From Daphnia carinata (lineage: Eukaryota): a DNA stretch of 64,000 bases. Location: the NCBI RefSeq assembly GCF_022539665.2, contig NC_081331.1, positions 5,518,001 through 5,582,000 of the forward strand, written 5' to 3'. Under the pieces are notes generated by a model that made no database searches, was not told where the DNA came from, and saw nothing but the letters and a program-made list of their open reading frames with translations. A program made the translations under genes and the position numbers. This document shows, one piece after another, positions 12,239 through 18,600 of this stretch (its first letter is position 1; the number at the start of each line of letters is the position of its first letter).

Positions 12239-12744
12239 CCATTCCTTCGTTGAAGTTAAAACAAGCTCAATGATGATGGATGGCCAGAGCTTGGAATGAA
12301 GAATATTTTGTATTATTTCCTTCTTATAAAAAAAACAAACGTATAATAAAACTTAGCCAAGACAAATGCAATTTTCGGAAGTTTAATTGTAATGCAGTGA
12401 AAGCAGAAAAAATTTTAAGCCCGACTAAATAAGCCCGACTTTTCTCGGTCGGGCTTAAATTTTTTTTCTGAAAAAACTGACACTCATCGGAATTGGTTGA
12501 ATATCACAGGGTATACTCAAAATTGAATGCTGATTCCGGGAAAATTGCTGTTTTTAAAATTAAGCAAATCGTTTTTGAAACACACCGAATATTTGACGCA
12601 ATGTTAGCGCGCCAGTACGCTACAGCGCTAGTTCGATGCAGCGGAAATATTCGGTGGGTATATATAGAGAATTAACTATACATCTGAGGTAGATGGCGAT
12701 AGCAGTGAAACGGAAAAAAGGCCGATATATGGCAATCCGTTTTA

Positions 12745-14988
12745 CATAAAAAAAAAAAAAAAAAAAATGGCGGAAAAAAAAAAAAATCGCACTTTTTTCT
12801 CTTTTTTCTACCCGTAGCCATCTATCAGTCGGTTTCGTTATTACAGGCATGTAAGCAATTTTAGTTAATTGTATCCCATTAGCAGTTAATTGAGTAGCGT
12901 GGCTGGAGAACAACGCGTGGCTGGAGGAACAATTGAAAAATGGATAAGATAATAAAACAAAAAAATGGTAAGTATAAACATTATTATATTGGTTTTCAAT
13001 TATTAATTATTGTTTATTAGATCAAATTATGAAGCTGCAGGCCCAGTTATTGGAACAACACAAAATATTAGATAATAAAGCTAAGGATCGTAGGCCTAAC
13101 ACGTAATGATTCTATTTATTTGCTTTTATTCATTCGTGTTTTGTAGCTCAAATTTTGAGTCTTCAAGCTCAGCTAGGGGAAAAGAACAAATTGGAACGGA
13201 ACAGTTTCCAAACAGTGAAGGAGGTTTTTCAAAACTCATCTCTAACTGAGCGTGAGGATGAGTTGGCATTAGGCGAACACAGCCAGGTACCTAAACTTTT
13301 CAAATAAGAATTCAAAATAAGTATAGAATTTTAAAAAACAATTATTTATTGCTTAGTTATTCAGTCCACCACCTGACAGTGTGTTAAATTTAAATTCTGT
13401 TAGTGCTGCACTAAAAGAATCGTTAGTAATAAGCTCATGCAGTGAAGGAACTGAACAATTGTGGGAACGTATTTGGGCCGAAAATGGGTGTGGTACAGAA
13501 ACCCAGAAATGGCACAAGTTCAACATGAAACATGGATTAGGTACTTTTCGGTTTTTTGTCTATCGAAAAAGTATTTTTAATGCTATTATTTTGCATTCAC
13601 AGATTTTAACGGGGGATCAAATCAAGTCTGGAAGTGTTACAGGATGGAAGAGTGAGCCTACAGATGAAAAAACACTGAGAGTGCATTACCGTAAGGTGTG
13701 AGGTAAATTATTAGAGTTATGCAAATTGCCTAATGAGAAGTACCATCTTGTGTTAATGAATCCAGTACAACAGCAATCCTTTATAGTTCTGTCACAGCTA
13801 GAAGCCTCAAATAATTCTGCTTCTCTGTCTAAAGAACAACTTGTCCTTTACGTTCAGAGTGTTGGGGAAACTGGGTACTTAAATGGCCCTAAAGATGTTT
13901 TAATTTTGCTGCTATTGCAGAGATGAACATCATACATGGACTCTTTAGGTATGAAAGGATTTTTCTTCAAATAATTTTGAATTTATGACGAAGAATTTCT
14001 CCTCCTTTTGCCAACCAGGTCTTATCTACCAAAAAAAATTTTATCCAATAGGAAAGGATTTTCATGTACTGGGAACACAACTATCAACAATGCAACATTC
14101 TACAGGTGCTAGTTTATCATTCAAGAGCCTTATACAATGAAGTTAATCTGCAATTTGTATGTCCTTTCCCAAGCTTCCACCAGAAGTTGAATCTATGAGT
14201 CATGTAAGTTCCATGATCAACAATTGATGTGTTTAACTGTGTTGTTTTTCTTTTCTCAATATAGGTTAATAGTAACATTGGATCTGAAAAGATTCTTGGT
14301 TGGGGCAAGACACTGAATAAATTGTATTGATTGGATGGATGACATGACATTGCTATACTTAATTCGGATTCCCCAGACGGTATTTGATATTTAAAAAATT
14401 GAAGTGCATATCTGGGCTCCCTTCTTTTCTGAAGCCCCGTTTCCCCTTGACTCATAATAAGCCCGTAGGGGGTCATGCCCCTACTGTACGGTATATATAA
14501 AAACAACATATACCGAGGTTTGGAGGGCTCTGGCCGGAAAGGGGACGTGGGGTGCCGCTTCGTCCGATGATGTGTTCACGGAGGGTGACGTGGCTGCCCA
14601 CAAATCCGAACTAAAGGTTAATCGCTCCTGTAAAAATGTTCCAAATCTTCAGCTCTTCTTCCGGCTTCTCTTAGCCAATCACCGGGTAATCTCCCCGGTG
14701 GGTCAACAAGGCAGTGTCTCCCCCTGCCTGGGTTGACGGCAACTTTTGAAAGGGCTATTGTGCCTTTTTAAAGTTGCAAAAATAATTGTAATGTGCAGAG
14801 AATTGTCAATAAATTTTTTTTATAAAATATTTTTTGCAAAATTTGTTTCTTTCATTGTCTTTGTTAGCTGTATTCACACATTACAATTATGAACTTTTTT
14901 TTTTTTTGCTTTGCTTTACTTGTTTTTATCACCTTTGATGGTAAGCATTGTTTCCATTGGTTTATCGTTTATCTGTAAGTATTCAATT
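12745..14988 (+). repeat. Left arm of ~2.25 kb inverted repeat
   Basis: ORFs 13381-13701(+), 13726-13926(+) and 14117-14509(-) have identical translations at 16789-17109(-), 16564-16764(-) and 15980-16372(+); coordinate sums ~30490, so the centre is ~15245. Confidence 0.97.
12940..14378 (+). pseudogene. Decayed multi-exon gene of unknown family in the left arm (coiled-coil-like N-terminus)
   Basis: ATG 12940; short GT-AG introns join in phase to MDKIIKQKN-DQIMKLQAQLLEQHKILDNKAKD-PQILSLQAQLGEKNKLERNSFQ...HSQ-LFSPPPDSVLNL...KHGL; later exon-like blocks are out of phase or contain TGA stops (KILGWGKTLNKLY*LDG*HDIAIL). Confidence 0.6.
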
Positions 14989-15079
14989 TTATTTATTACA
15001 CTCTTTCAATTCTTCAACTTAGATTCAAGGAACAACGTGTAGTATCTGGATATTTTTTGAAGTAATTTTGTATTTTGTT

Positions 15080-15150
15080 TACTCGTATGGGAACCGATCC
15101 CCAGACAATCAGCGTGCAACGCCGATGCTCTAACATTAAGCCACGAGATA
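15080..15150 (-). pseudogene. tRNA-like element (Ala-TGC-like), degenerate
   Basis: Minus strand CTCG-TGGCTTAATGTTAGAGC-ATCGGC-GTTGCAC-GCTGA-TTGTC-TGGGGATCGGTTCCCA-TACGAG: A box, anticodon arm with TGC, GGATCG T-loop variant, partial acceptor stem CTCG/CGAG. Confidence 0.6.
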
Positions 15151-15246
15151 TAACTAAATATTTTATTATCGCATATCATATGTTATCGTCTAGGATGTTT
15201 ATGCAGTCTTTCACAATTATATGTTTATCTTTCTATTGCATTTAAA

Positions 15247-15312
15247 AGGTTCATAGCTCTGTGGTAGAGCGTTTAGCTACGACAACTGTTACCCTGGGTT
15301 CAAACCTCAATA
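15247..15312 (+). pseudogene. tRNA-like element, degenerate
   Basis: A box TAGCTCTGTGGTAGAGC (15254-15270) and B box GGTTCAAACC (15297-15306) at tRNA spacing; anticodon and acceptor stems decayed. Confidence 0.55.
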
Positions 15313-15433
15313 GATGTGTTAAAATGAAGTAGAATTAATGTAGAAGAGTATGTTGCAGAATTGCATTTCATTTTTATTCTAAGTGTAAATGCAAGTCCAC
15401 AAGTGACTAGTAAAAAGACAACTTGACATAACA

Positions 15434-15500
15434 TGATTCATGGCTCATTGGTAGAGCATCGGCGCGGGATGCCGAACATCCAGGGTTCGATCCCTGGATA
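15434..15500 (+). pseudogene. tRNA-like element, degenerate
   Basis: TGGCTCATTGGTAGAGC (A box/D arm), TCGGC-GCGGGAT-GCCGA anticodon arm, CCAGGG-TTCGAT-CCCTGG T arm with B box; no acceptor stem. Confidence 0.65.
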
Positions 15501-15502
15501 AT

Positions 15503-17763
15503 AATAGAATGCTTACAGATAAACGATAAACCAATGGAAACAATGCTTACCATCAAAGGTGATAAAAACAAGTAAAGCAAAGCAAAAAAAAAAAAGTTCA
15601 TAATTGTAATGTGTGAATACAGTTAACAAAGACAATGAAAGAAACAAATTTTGCAAAAAATATTTTATAAAAAAAATTTATTGACAATTCTCTGCACATT
15701 ACAATTATTTTTGCAACTTTAAAAGGCACAATAGCCCTTTCAAAAGTTGCCGTCAACCCAGGCAGGGGGAGACACTGCCTTGTTGACCCACCGGGGAGAT
15801 TACCCGGTGATTGGCTAAGAGAAGCCGGAAGAAGAGCTGAAGATTTGGAACATTTTTACAGGAGCGATTAACCTTTAGTTCGGATTTGTGGGCAGCCACG
15901 TCACCCTCCGTGAACACATCATCGGACGAAGCGGCACCCCACGTCCCCTTTCCGGCCAGAGCCCTCCAAACCTCGGTATATGTTGTTTTTATATATACCG
16001 TACAGTAGGGGCATGACCCCCTACGGGCTTATTATGAGTCAAGGGGAAACGGGGCTTCAGAAAAGAAGGGAGCCCAGATATGCACTTCAATTTTTTAAAT
16101 ATCAAATACCGTCTGGGGAATCCGAATTAAGTATAGCAATGTCATGTCATCCATCCAATCAATACAATTTATTCAGTGTCTTGCCCCAACCAAGAATCTT
16201 TTCAGATCCAATGTTACTATTAACCTATATTGAGAAAAGAAAAACAACACAGTTAAACACATCAATTGTTGATCATGGAACTTACATGACTCATAGATTC
16301 AACTTCTGGTGGAAGCTTGGGAAAGGACATACAAATTGCAGATTAACTTCATTGTATAAGGCTCTTGAATGATAAACTAGCACCTGTAGAATGTTGCATT
16401 GTTGATAGTTGTGTTCCCAGTACATGAAAATCCTTTCCTATTGGATAAAATTTTTTTTGGTAGATAAGACCTGGTTGGCAAAAAGGAGGAGAAATTCTTC
16501 GTCATAAATTCAAAATTATTTGAAGAAAAATCCTTTCATACCTAAAGAGTCCATGTATGATGTTCATCTCTGCAATAGCAGCAAAATTAAAACATCTTTA
16601 GGGCCATTTAAGTACCCAGTTTCCCCAACACTCTGAACGTAAAGGACAAGTTGTTCTTTAGACAGAGAAGCAGAATTATTTGAGGCTTCTAGCTGTGACA
16701 GAACTATAAAGGATTGCTGTTGTACTGGATTCATTAACACAAGATGGTACTTCTCATTAGGCAATTTGCATAACTCTAATAATTTACCTCACACCTTACG
16801 GTAATGCACTCTCAGTGTTTTTTCATCTGTAGGCTCACTCTTCCATCCTGTAACACTTCCAGACTTGATTTGATCCCCCGTTAAAATCTGTGAATGCAAA
16901 ATAATAGCATTAAAAATACTTTTTCGATAGACAAAAAACCGAAAAGTACCTAATCCATGTTTCATGTTGAACTTGTGCCATTTCTGGGTTTCTGTACCAC
17001 ACCCATTTTCGGCCCAAATACGTTCCCACAATTGTTCAGTTCCTTCACTGCATGAGCTTATTACTAACGATTCTTTTAGTGCAGCACTAACAGAATTTAA
17101 ATTTAACACACTGTCAGGTGGTGGACTGAATAACTAAGCAATAAATAATTGTTTTTTAAAATTCTATACTTATTTTGAATTCTTATTTGAAAAGTTTAGG
17201 TACCTGGCTGTGTTCGCCTAATGCCAACTCATCCTCACGCTCAGTTAGAGATGAGTTTTGAAAAACCTCCTTCACTGTTTGGAAACTGTTCCATTCCAAT
17301 TTGTTCTTTTCCCCTAGCTGAGCTTGAAGACTCAAAATTTGAGCTACAAAACACGAATGAATAAAAGCAAATAAATAGAATCATTACGTGTTAGGCCTAC
17401 GATCCTTAGCTTTATTATCTAATATTTTGTGTTGTTCCAATAACTGGGCCTGCAGCTTCATAATTTGATCTAATAAACAATAATTAATAATTGAAAACCA
17501 ATATAATAATGTTTATACTTACCATTTTTTTGTTTTATTATCTTATCCATTTTTCAATTGTTCCTCCAGCCACGCGTTGTTCTCCAGCCACGCTATCAAT
17601 TAACTGCTAATGGGATACAATTAACTCAAATTGCTTACATGCCTGTAATAACGACTACCTAACCTTTAATAATAACTAACCTAACCTAACCGACTGATAG
17701 ATGGCTACGGGTAGAATAAAGAGAAAAAAGTGCGATTTTTTTTTTCCGCCATTTTTTTTTTAT
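15503..17763 (-). repeat. Right arm of ~2.25 kb inverted repeat
   Basis: Reverse complement of 12745-14988 with a few substitutions/indels and a ~33 bp CCTAA-rich insert near 17655-17688. Confidence 0.97.
16111..17550 (-). pseudogene. Mirror copy of the decayed multi-exon gene in the right arm
   Basis: Reverse complement of 12940-14378. Confidence 0.6.
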
Positions 17764-18600
17764 GGCAATCCGTTTTACATAAAAAAAAAAAATGGCGGAA
17801 AAAAAAAAAAAAATCGCACTTTTTTCTCTTTTTTCTTTTTCTCTTAGTCAATCACCGGGTAATCTCCCTGGTGGGTCAACAAGGCAGTGTCTCCCCCTGC
17901 CTGGGTTGATGGCAACTATTGAAAGGGCTATTATGCCTTTTTAAAGTTGCAATATGCATGAAGCAGCGCAATATTTGCAGATCGATAATGGCGGTGGAGG
18001 TAAAAACTACAAAAAATAAACGAGATAACGATACCGTTCAGACGAGGGAAACTCAGATACACGTTGTCAACGTAAAAACAAAGTAAACAATGGGAACCAC
18101 ATGACAAAAAAAGTAACAATAGTTCCATTTCACATGCTAGAGGCTGATGAATCTGCAGCGCCATCTAGTGGAAATACTGTTTGGCCAGGTTTTAAAATAA
18201 GCCCGACAAAATAAGCATCGTACTAGCGCTGTAGCGTACTGGCGCGCTAGCATTGCGTCAAATACTCGGTGTATTTCAAAAACAATTAACTTCATAAAAA
18301 AAATAGTAATTTATTCAGAATCAGCATTCAATTTTGAGTATACCCTGTAATATTCAACTAATTCCTATGAGTGTCAGTTTTTTCAGAAAAAAAAAATTAA
18401 GCCCGACCGAGAAAAGTCGGGCTTATTTAGTCGGGCTTAAAAATTTTTTTCGGTCAGTGTATGTTGAGAATTAACTAGAAACGTGACCGGTAGATGGCGA
18501 TAGCAATAAAACACAAAAAAAGGCCAATATTTTTTTTTTATTTTGGGTAAAACGGATTGCCATATGTTTACAATATATGGTTTATTGATTTAACCGTAAA

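Follow-up and report, generated by a model that had tools for sequence, protein, structure and literature searches.

An inverted pair of gene-bearing copies of a previously undescribed repeat forms a palindrome in Daphnia carinata

How does a genome come to carry the same spliced gene twice within about 5 kb, in two copies that face each other and are nearly identical? The question is raised by a 64-kb window of Daphnia carinata DNA (contig NC_081331.1, positions 5,518,001 to 5,582,000 of the forward strand; coordinates below count from the first letter of this window), in which an earlier note had described a ~5-kb palindrome with arms of ~2.25 kb around a spacer of ~515 bp and had proposed it as a hairpin-RNA 'killer' locus made of a decayed gene. 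When the whole window was compared with itself by BLAST, all eight self-matches fell within 12407–18565, and the largest, an inverted pair at 97.9% over 2270 columns (E 0.0), joined a left arm on the plus strand (12758–14992) to an inverted copy on the minus strand (15498–17761), the latter without the final 150 bp and its own 5′ tip. The geometry is thus as described, with a spacer of 505 bp (14993–15497), and we have hardly any doubt that the gene-bearing palindrome is real. The locus probably represents an inverted transposable-element (TE) duplication, or converting palindrome, made of a previously undescribed Daphnia repeat.

The arms are not equally alike along their length. Over the inner 2085 bp (12895–14979) they are 99.8% alike, differing by two substitutions, at 13197/17293 and 14867/15623 (the two sites that the earlier note had singled out), and by three one-base indels in homopolymers. 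The outer 137 bp hold three point differences, a 33-bp TTAGG-like indel—the stretch sits in the right arm—and A-runs of unequal length, and the final 13 bp at the spacer add three further differences. That divergence rises outward, as had been noted, is confirmed by the point differences (outer 3/137 versus inner 2/2085; Fisher p 0.002, for a boundary picked post hoc).

Each arm contains a five-exon gene. An exon model guided by the best D. carinata protein relatives places the left copy on the plus strand at 12940–13655 (exons 12940–12967, 13021–13089, 13147–13286, 13357–13540, and 13603–13655) and the second on the minus strand at 16835–17550. In both, four GT-AG introns of 53–70 nt yield an uninterrupted frame of 157 residues, and the two proteins differ at one residue only, an R>W change in the second copy at the 13197 site. 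The earlier description of the same intron-containing gene in each arm, pointing inward, therefore holds for both copies, whereas its 'decayed' does not, since the frame is open in both arms.

To what family does this gene belong? One read-through frame, searched against 1.8 billion protein representatives, gave five matches, the two best of which are D. carinata proteins named 'uncharacterized'. The family comprises 15 clusters with 96 sequences, and all 15 representatives are named D. carinata; the figures that follow rest on 57 of the 96, with up to three gene-id names each. These 57 sequences, 102 to 180 residues long and with a median identity of 88.5%, carry 66 gene ids on ten contigs of 7.9–14.4 Mb. 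The arm protein is 78–96% identical to 56 D. carinata relatives (151/158 columns for P0014), and none of the relatives compared equals either arm protein. R and W at the 13197 site are both represented in the family, in 32 and 14 of the 57 sequences.

The window does not appear to be the only place where this gene occurs in twins. Following annotation practice, gene-id order can be taken as a proxy for adjacency; by this measure, the 64 gene ids of one numbering block include seven consecutive pairs where 0.2 would be expected, a count that none of 20000 uniform draws reached. Six of the seven, on five contigs, code for proteins that are identical over their overlap, a state found in just 3 of the 1596 pairs of distinct family sequences. 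The ids of these twins are LOC130686672/3, 130686766/7, 130689229/30, 130692407/8, 130696842/3, and 130704040/1. The six twin pairs are mutually 85–94% alike (6–15% different) and fall in at least four branches of a quick tree, in which 3 of 54 branches are well supported. Identical twins thus probably recur at other family loci of D. carinata, making our locus one of several. In the annotation, the two members of such a pair stand as coding genes of their own, several with more than one transcript record, and many members of the family at large have several; as gene models with several records are usually built so as to imply transcription and splicing, this suggests a transcribed and spliced family. 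P0022, P0023, and P0036 each stand under two distant gene ids (two contigs counted), as after recent movement. A more distant relative, the Logan protein P0005 from two contigs (E 6e-4; 51% over 60 residues), suggests a wider occurrence of the gene, beyond D. carinata. Metagenome contigs gave no family match by protein (231 pattern matches, none confirmed) or by a 26-letter DNA pattern, and viral contigs none among 41 pattern matches.

The arm also behaves as a high-copy repeat. A search of public runs listed six, of which five contained part of the stretch and none half of it; no RNA run was among them, from which nothing follows about expression. One of the six (X1) supplied 86 contigs on 14930–15565, whose summed depth is not a copy number. 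Depth was 464–959 in the 11 bins of 14952–15127 and 15502–15565, dropped to 55 in bin 15128–15149 and 2.4 over 15150–15303, was nil over 15326–15369 (0–4.8 over 15150–15435 as a whole), and rose again to 61–180 over 15436–15501, which corresponds to a tRNA-like unit. It is this step of about a hundredfold between arm ends and spacer core that marks the arm as high-copy, and since the deep bins continue to 15127, some 140 bp of the spacer next to the left arm still belong to the repeat. Together with the match of its 5′ 32 nt to the identical start of a short copy beyond the right arm, the depth profile outlines a putative full-length left element on the plus strand at 12728–15146, made up of a 5′ end, the gene, 3′ non-coding modules, and a tRNA-like end. 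A 6-bp direct repeat at 12724–12729 and 15147–15152 flanks it and may be a target-site duplication, a weak candidate in that 34 of 1000 controls reach it and eight boundary pairs were tried.

By depth and alignment, the spacer accordingly divides in two: 14993–15146 (plus strand) belongs to the high-copy repeat (depth 464–870 in bins 14996–15127) and ends in a minus-strand tRNA-like unit (15090–15146), and 15147–15497 is a low-copy core with two plus-strand units at ~15252–15308 and 15438–15497. Rfam scores a tRNA at 15441–15496 with 30.4 bits (cut-off 29), and ARAGORN finds no tRNA gene. All three units are decayed and begin alike, the first lying within the high-copy repeat, and they are possibly the heads of a SINE-like family (SINE, short interspersed element). 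Two X1 contigs on the core are ~9–10% diverged from the window. One of the two, 228 letters long, fits 15381–15497 and halts where the right arm would begin, 109 of its letters being left unmatched; it hints, among the few contigs inspected, that a form without the right arm exists.

On balance, the locus probably consists of two inward copies of a 2.3–2.4-kb gene-carrying, non-autonomous element, paired by fold-back or template-switch repair at the element end and homogenised by arm-to-arm conversion. Its outer edge carries what such pairing could leave behind. Self-BLAST and folding reveal a head-to-head hairpin junction at 17713–17836, composed of the right arm end, a 13-nt loop (17765–17777) closed by TATG/CATA, and the start of the short copy; none of 100 shuffles was as stable as the fold of 17590–17960 (z -10.3). 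The same 4-bp inverted repeat is found at the left copy's 5′ end, where the fold of 12640–12900 is within shuffle range (z -1.4). The short copy itself (17761–17952, plus strand) is an internally deleted third one, a 5′ piece of 76 bp followed by 127 bp that are 92% identical to 14653–14779, and a hairpin ends it at 17952. When fold-back is primed at a short interrupted inverted repeat, it leaves just such a trace, a single 13-nt loop between two copies that stand head-to-head and share it. A break beside the short copy's 5′ tip would have folded back on its 4-bp inverted repeat, synthesis would have run along element sequence, and a short overlap rich in A and T would have allowed it to rejoin 350 bp beyond the left copy. 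Later conversion would have levelled the inner 2.1 kb and spared the edges, and the same process could have produced the identical twins at other family loci.

For the inner identity, the earlier note had left recent origin and arm-to-arm conversion side by side. The split between inner and outer divergence favours conversion, as does the contrast between inner arms at 99.8% and family proteins at a median of 88.5%, with the edges and the short copy differing by 2–8%. Homogenisation of inverted copies has been described for gene-bearing palindromes (PMC7953838). Locus-by-locus homogenisation of inverted copies accounts most simply for the window and the D. carinata pairs together.

Several points weigh against this reconstruction. 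Twin adjacency rests on id order, which gives neither orientation nor spacing, so that tandem pairs are possible; the uniform draws ignore clustering, by which adjacency would be inflated; and some identical proteins are found under ids that are not consecutive (P0022, P0023, P0030, and P0036; P0007/P0055; P0023/P0024). Depth comes from one contig run, three others having given nothing on 14930–15565, and no X1 contig or read crosses the spacer. If copying was a single recent event, the 33-bp indel and two nearby outer differences go unaccounted for, and the third copy, short and 8% diverged, is unlike that of a fresh inverted triplication. Neither a transposase (Pfam on six frames of part of the window and on 16 family members), nor a terminal inverted repeat of the single copy, nor a firm target-site duplication was found; hence it is dispersion and depth that argue for mobility, and that make the repeat a likely non-autonomous mobile element of Daphnia.

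Could the palindrome itself be what moves? On this rather doubtful reading, the 5.0-kb structure, or the 5.8-kb block 12731–18561, is a foldback-type mobile unit with a gene in each long inverted arm. It would account for twins at six loci on at least four tree branches, identical within a pair and 85–94% alike between pairs, and a 19-bp perfect inverted repeat (12727–12745 / 18547–18565), with weaker similarity for ~100 bp inward, does enclose the whole block. A unit moving as a whole is, however, hard to square with a spacer core at background depth between arms about a hundredfold deeper, or with the 54 of 66 gene ids that lie outside identical consecutive pairs, although the twin count is a lower bound with 57 of 96 sequences covered. 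Nor does a direct repeat of at least 4 bp flank the palindrome (12758–17760), none being found within 6 bp of 12758/17760 or 12407/18448, and the ATAT on both sides of the 5.8-kb block, being self-complementary, counts towards the inverted repeat. The same low credence attaches to the fuller picture of a travelling gene-bearing palindrome, with two 2.3-kb arms, an open spliced gene of no known family in each, mutually corrected at every locus and able to make its own double-stranded RNA (dsRNA), whose hundred-copy, lineage-specific gene family would spread and restrain itself via twin loci.

The silencing proposal that first drew attention to the locus holds that read-through from an arm, or from the upstream neighbour symplekin, gives a hairpin RNA and small interfering RNAs (siRNAs) that silence the family in trans, and that selection keeps the locus for this. 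We consider such a selected killer function possible and, as an explanation of the locus, unlikely. Geometry allows a hairpin of more than 2 kb at 99.8% identity and resembles that of Mu killer (PMC3440606) and the Ac killers (10.1101/2020.01.07.897926), likewise inward inverted duplications of the 5′ part of a mobile-element gene beside a host gene. Symplekin (Pfam Symplekin_C, E 7e-37) does point at the palindrome, with a poly(A) signal upstream of it (AATAAA at 12345), as the earlier note had it. Of the proposed target, 'parent gene or TE family', the second half survives as a many-copy family of 96 sequences, and there is no single intact parent gene. Against selection for silencing stand the open frames of both arms and the annotation of the D. 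carinata twins as two coding genes, many members having several transcript records. The AATAAA signals tell against it as well, lying twice per arm ahead of the spacer (14316 and 14808) and once behind symplekin, so that dsRNA requires read-through past 14316, 14808, and the spacer, or past 12345. When convergent sense transcripts stop within the arms, they are copies of one another and not complements.

Even for Mu killer, the long-hairpin model was disputed (PMC3440606). The maize killers derive from autonomous transposase elements, the Ac killers by alternative transposition (10.1101/2020.01.07.897926), and dsRNA, siRNAs, and silencing have been shown for them, whereas our locus shows no transposase, has open frames in both arms, and probably has counterparts at several loci. 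A transposase origin of the arms, the Mu killer trait, found no support in Pfam, PDB, or longer homologues. Under the preferred account of an element pair homogenised by conversion, each arm would most likely yield its own spliced mRNA, and a long hairpin RNA, plausible as a by-product, would arise only upon read-through and target the family itself.

That the assembly created the palindrome, through a fold-back chimera or by misjoining a repeat, is very improbable. Artificial palindromes are known from assemblies (PMC7953838), no spanning contig or read was seen, the arm is a high-copy repeat, and three of the five inner differences are homopolymer lengths. The arms nevertheless differ by substitutions and the 33-bp indel, both states of the 13197 site exist in the family, and most of the X1 depth (434/644, nine contigs) carries the extra A that the right arm has opposite 14988. 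With symplekin on one side and a PhyH-family dioxygenase gene (PhyH, E 6.6e-14) on the other, an artefact would need two switches, and a fold-back chimera is unlikely.

Which class of element might the single copy represent? Canonical Helitrons carry CTRR shortly behind a 3′ hairpin; there is none in 14480–14505, 14775–14800, or 17948–17975, and the two in 15140–15200 lie behind the inferred end. Helentrons and HINEs (Helentron-associated interspersed elements) have 11–15-bp subterminal inverted repeats, a 3′ stem-loop, T-runs at both ends, and a TT target (PMC4067079). The best inverted matches over four end pairs were 9/11 and 10/13, the 3′ flanks of the candidate ends, themselves inferred, are not T-runs, and a stem-loop near the 3′ end is present, namely the hairpin of the short copy. 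Terminon or Penelope-like elements combine a reverse transcriptase with a hammerhead ribozyme beside telomeric repeats at the 3′ end (PMC6431247); Pfam gave no reverse transcriptase match, and the 17 Rfam rows at E<=1 include no hammerhead, one core-motif match lying outside the arms. That the single copy belongs to the rolling-circle elements (Helitron/Helentron) and grew by 3′ read-through, or is a Penelope/Terminon fragment, with two copies tail to tail by chance, is the least probable reading of all: the mosaic build with several internal hairpins, one ending the short copy, the retained introns, a helical, coiled-coil-like N-terminus in the protein model, the TTAGG-like stretch in the right arm, and the commonness of Helitrons in D. 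pulex (PMC2884549) speak for it, but an 11-bp subterminal inverted repeat, CTRR behind the hairpins, T-run flanks, and a hammerhead are missing, the locus sits between two host genes, and a chance landing leaves the common hairpin junction unexplained.

The protein gives little further guidance. An AlphaFold2 model has a mean pLDDT (predicted local distance difference test score) of 52.6, a PDB search found no structural relative (best E 0.055), and Pfam on 16 members gave uniformly weak matches (best E 0.0097, in one member) and no known domain. A GCR1_C match of P0001 in the ESM Atlas (0.76) is at chance level, and a Crypton link is therefore not claimed. Searches for longer relatives returned none among 387 candidates for P0001 and none among 682 for the frame 13357–13926, which is weak evidence. 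Three CpG-bearing Arg codons in 13147–13540 are among the family's most variable sites (R/W/Q/L, H/R/C/S, and R/C/H/S), a pattern that looks as if it came from CpG deamination on both strands, with counts that are of sequences, not events.

Behind the stop codon, 13656–14400 (plus strand) contains further intron-like stretches (candidate GT-AG introns from 13703, 13949, and 14204) and no homologous open frame; it is a candidate for a long spliced 3′ untranslated region or a decayed remainder. Six-frame Pfam and a one-frame protein search found no match there, and Ulp1, trypsin, and DDE motifs weighed by eye in the 3′ part are unsupported. The next module (14405–14850, plus strand; hairpins near 14464–14483 and 14745–14779) weakly matches the D. 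magna gene predictions P0003 (E 6e-8) and P0004 (E 1.5e-4) in shifting frames, as a non-coding repeat would, and is likely such a repeat, shared with Daphnia magna. Two D. magna gene models, of which one is labelled GMP synthase (P0008), incorporate its part 14405–14780, which is likely annotation noise. Beginning where the short copy stops, each arm also holds an AT-rich unit of 109 bp whose inverted ends match perfectly over 14 bp (14782–14890 in the left).

Relics surround the palindrome on both sides. Self-BLAST pairs a MITE-like unit (MITE, miniature inverted-repeat transposable element) at 12407–12640 (plus strand) with an inverted copy at 18215–18448 (90%). The pair has repeated TAAGCCCG ends; on the two strands of the 64-kb window this 8-mer occurs nine times, always within the locus and twice inside the arms. 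On the minus strand at 12650–12727, head-to-head with the left arm, is what may be an old relic like the element's 5′ region, with a direct copy at 18449–18530 (79%); its local score of 37 is marginal, being reached by 0–1 of 1000 shuffles against a background maximum of 35 in 359 windows. A diverged copy of the element's 5′ end (18449–18565, minus strand; 19 bp perfect in the alignment) lies directly upstream of the PhyH-family gene. These relics and the bracketing MITE-like pair indicate that the interval was hit repeatedly. The ~115 bp upstream of the PhyH-family gene are thus a reversed, diverged element 5′ end, and either the element may have taken its promoter from that gene or the gene may now use the relic as a promoter. 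Rfam miRNA and leader matches at 17723–17829 are under their cut-offs and reflect the A/T hairpin.

How does the locus compare with other known systems? Like the converting palindromes of Y chromosomes, Adineta, and Folsomia, it consists of inverted gene copies that are nearly the same and diverge more at their edges; unlike these, which hold single-copy host genes, it measures 5 kb, belongs to a dispersed repeat family, and is likely to recur at many loci (PMC7953838). Inverted triplication by inverted-repeat amplification that is origin-dependent (ODIRA) likewise sets its copies in direct-inverted-direct order and has its junctions at short inverted repeats with an interruption (PMC4689423). 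Here the outer junction fits, with a 4-bp stem and a 13-nt loop, and at the inner one the tRNA-like inverted pair and the arms are out of register by 94 bp. ODIRA also gives three near-identical full copies, where the third at our locus has an internal deletion, measures 192 bp, and is 92% alike. The long inverted arms (2.25 kb here) recall foldback or long-terminal-inverted-repeat transposons such as Galileo and Tm1, and the carriage of a spliced non-transposase gene recalls Pack-MULEs (PMC6431247). The locus departs from both in having no target-site duplication around the palindrome, a spacer core at low depth in X1 (next to six identical id pairs that would suit a build repeated in many copies), and a whole open gene per arm. 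The D. pulex DNA-transposon survey lists no such class in the parts examined (PMC2884549). A search at the level of titles, with subscription papers and repeat databases mostly outside it, on Daphnia palindromes, D. carinata repeats, hairpin RNAs, and long-terminal-inverted-repeat or tail-to-tail elements found neither this repeat family nor twin-gene palindromes described.

Daphnia genomes are rich in lineage-specific gene families, and the gene models of the present one inflate gene counts. Should the other twins turn out to be tandem or artefacts, what we have is an ordinary inverted duplication of a repeat. As it stands, a family of about a hundred 'uncharacterized' D. carinata genes looks like the cargo of an undescribed repeat that seems to have repeatedly formed self-homogenising twins. 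If these twins are inverted, one genome offers at least six to seven natural replicates for measuring arm-to-arm conversion, and a test of whether RNA silencing in an animal can be set off by inverted TE pairs, as has been shown for maize Ac.

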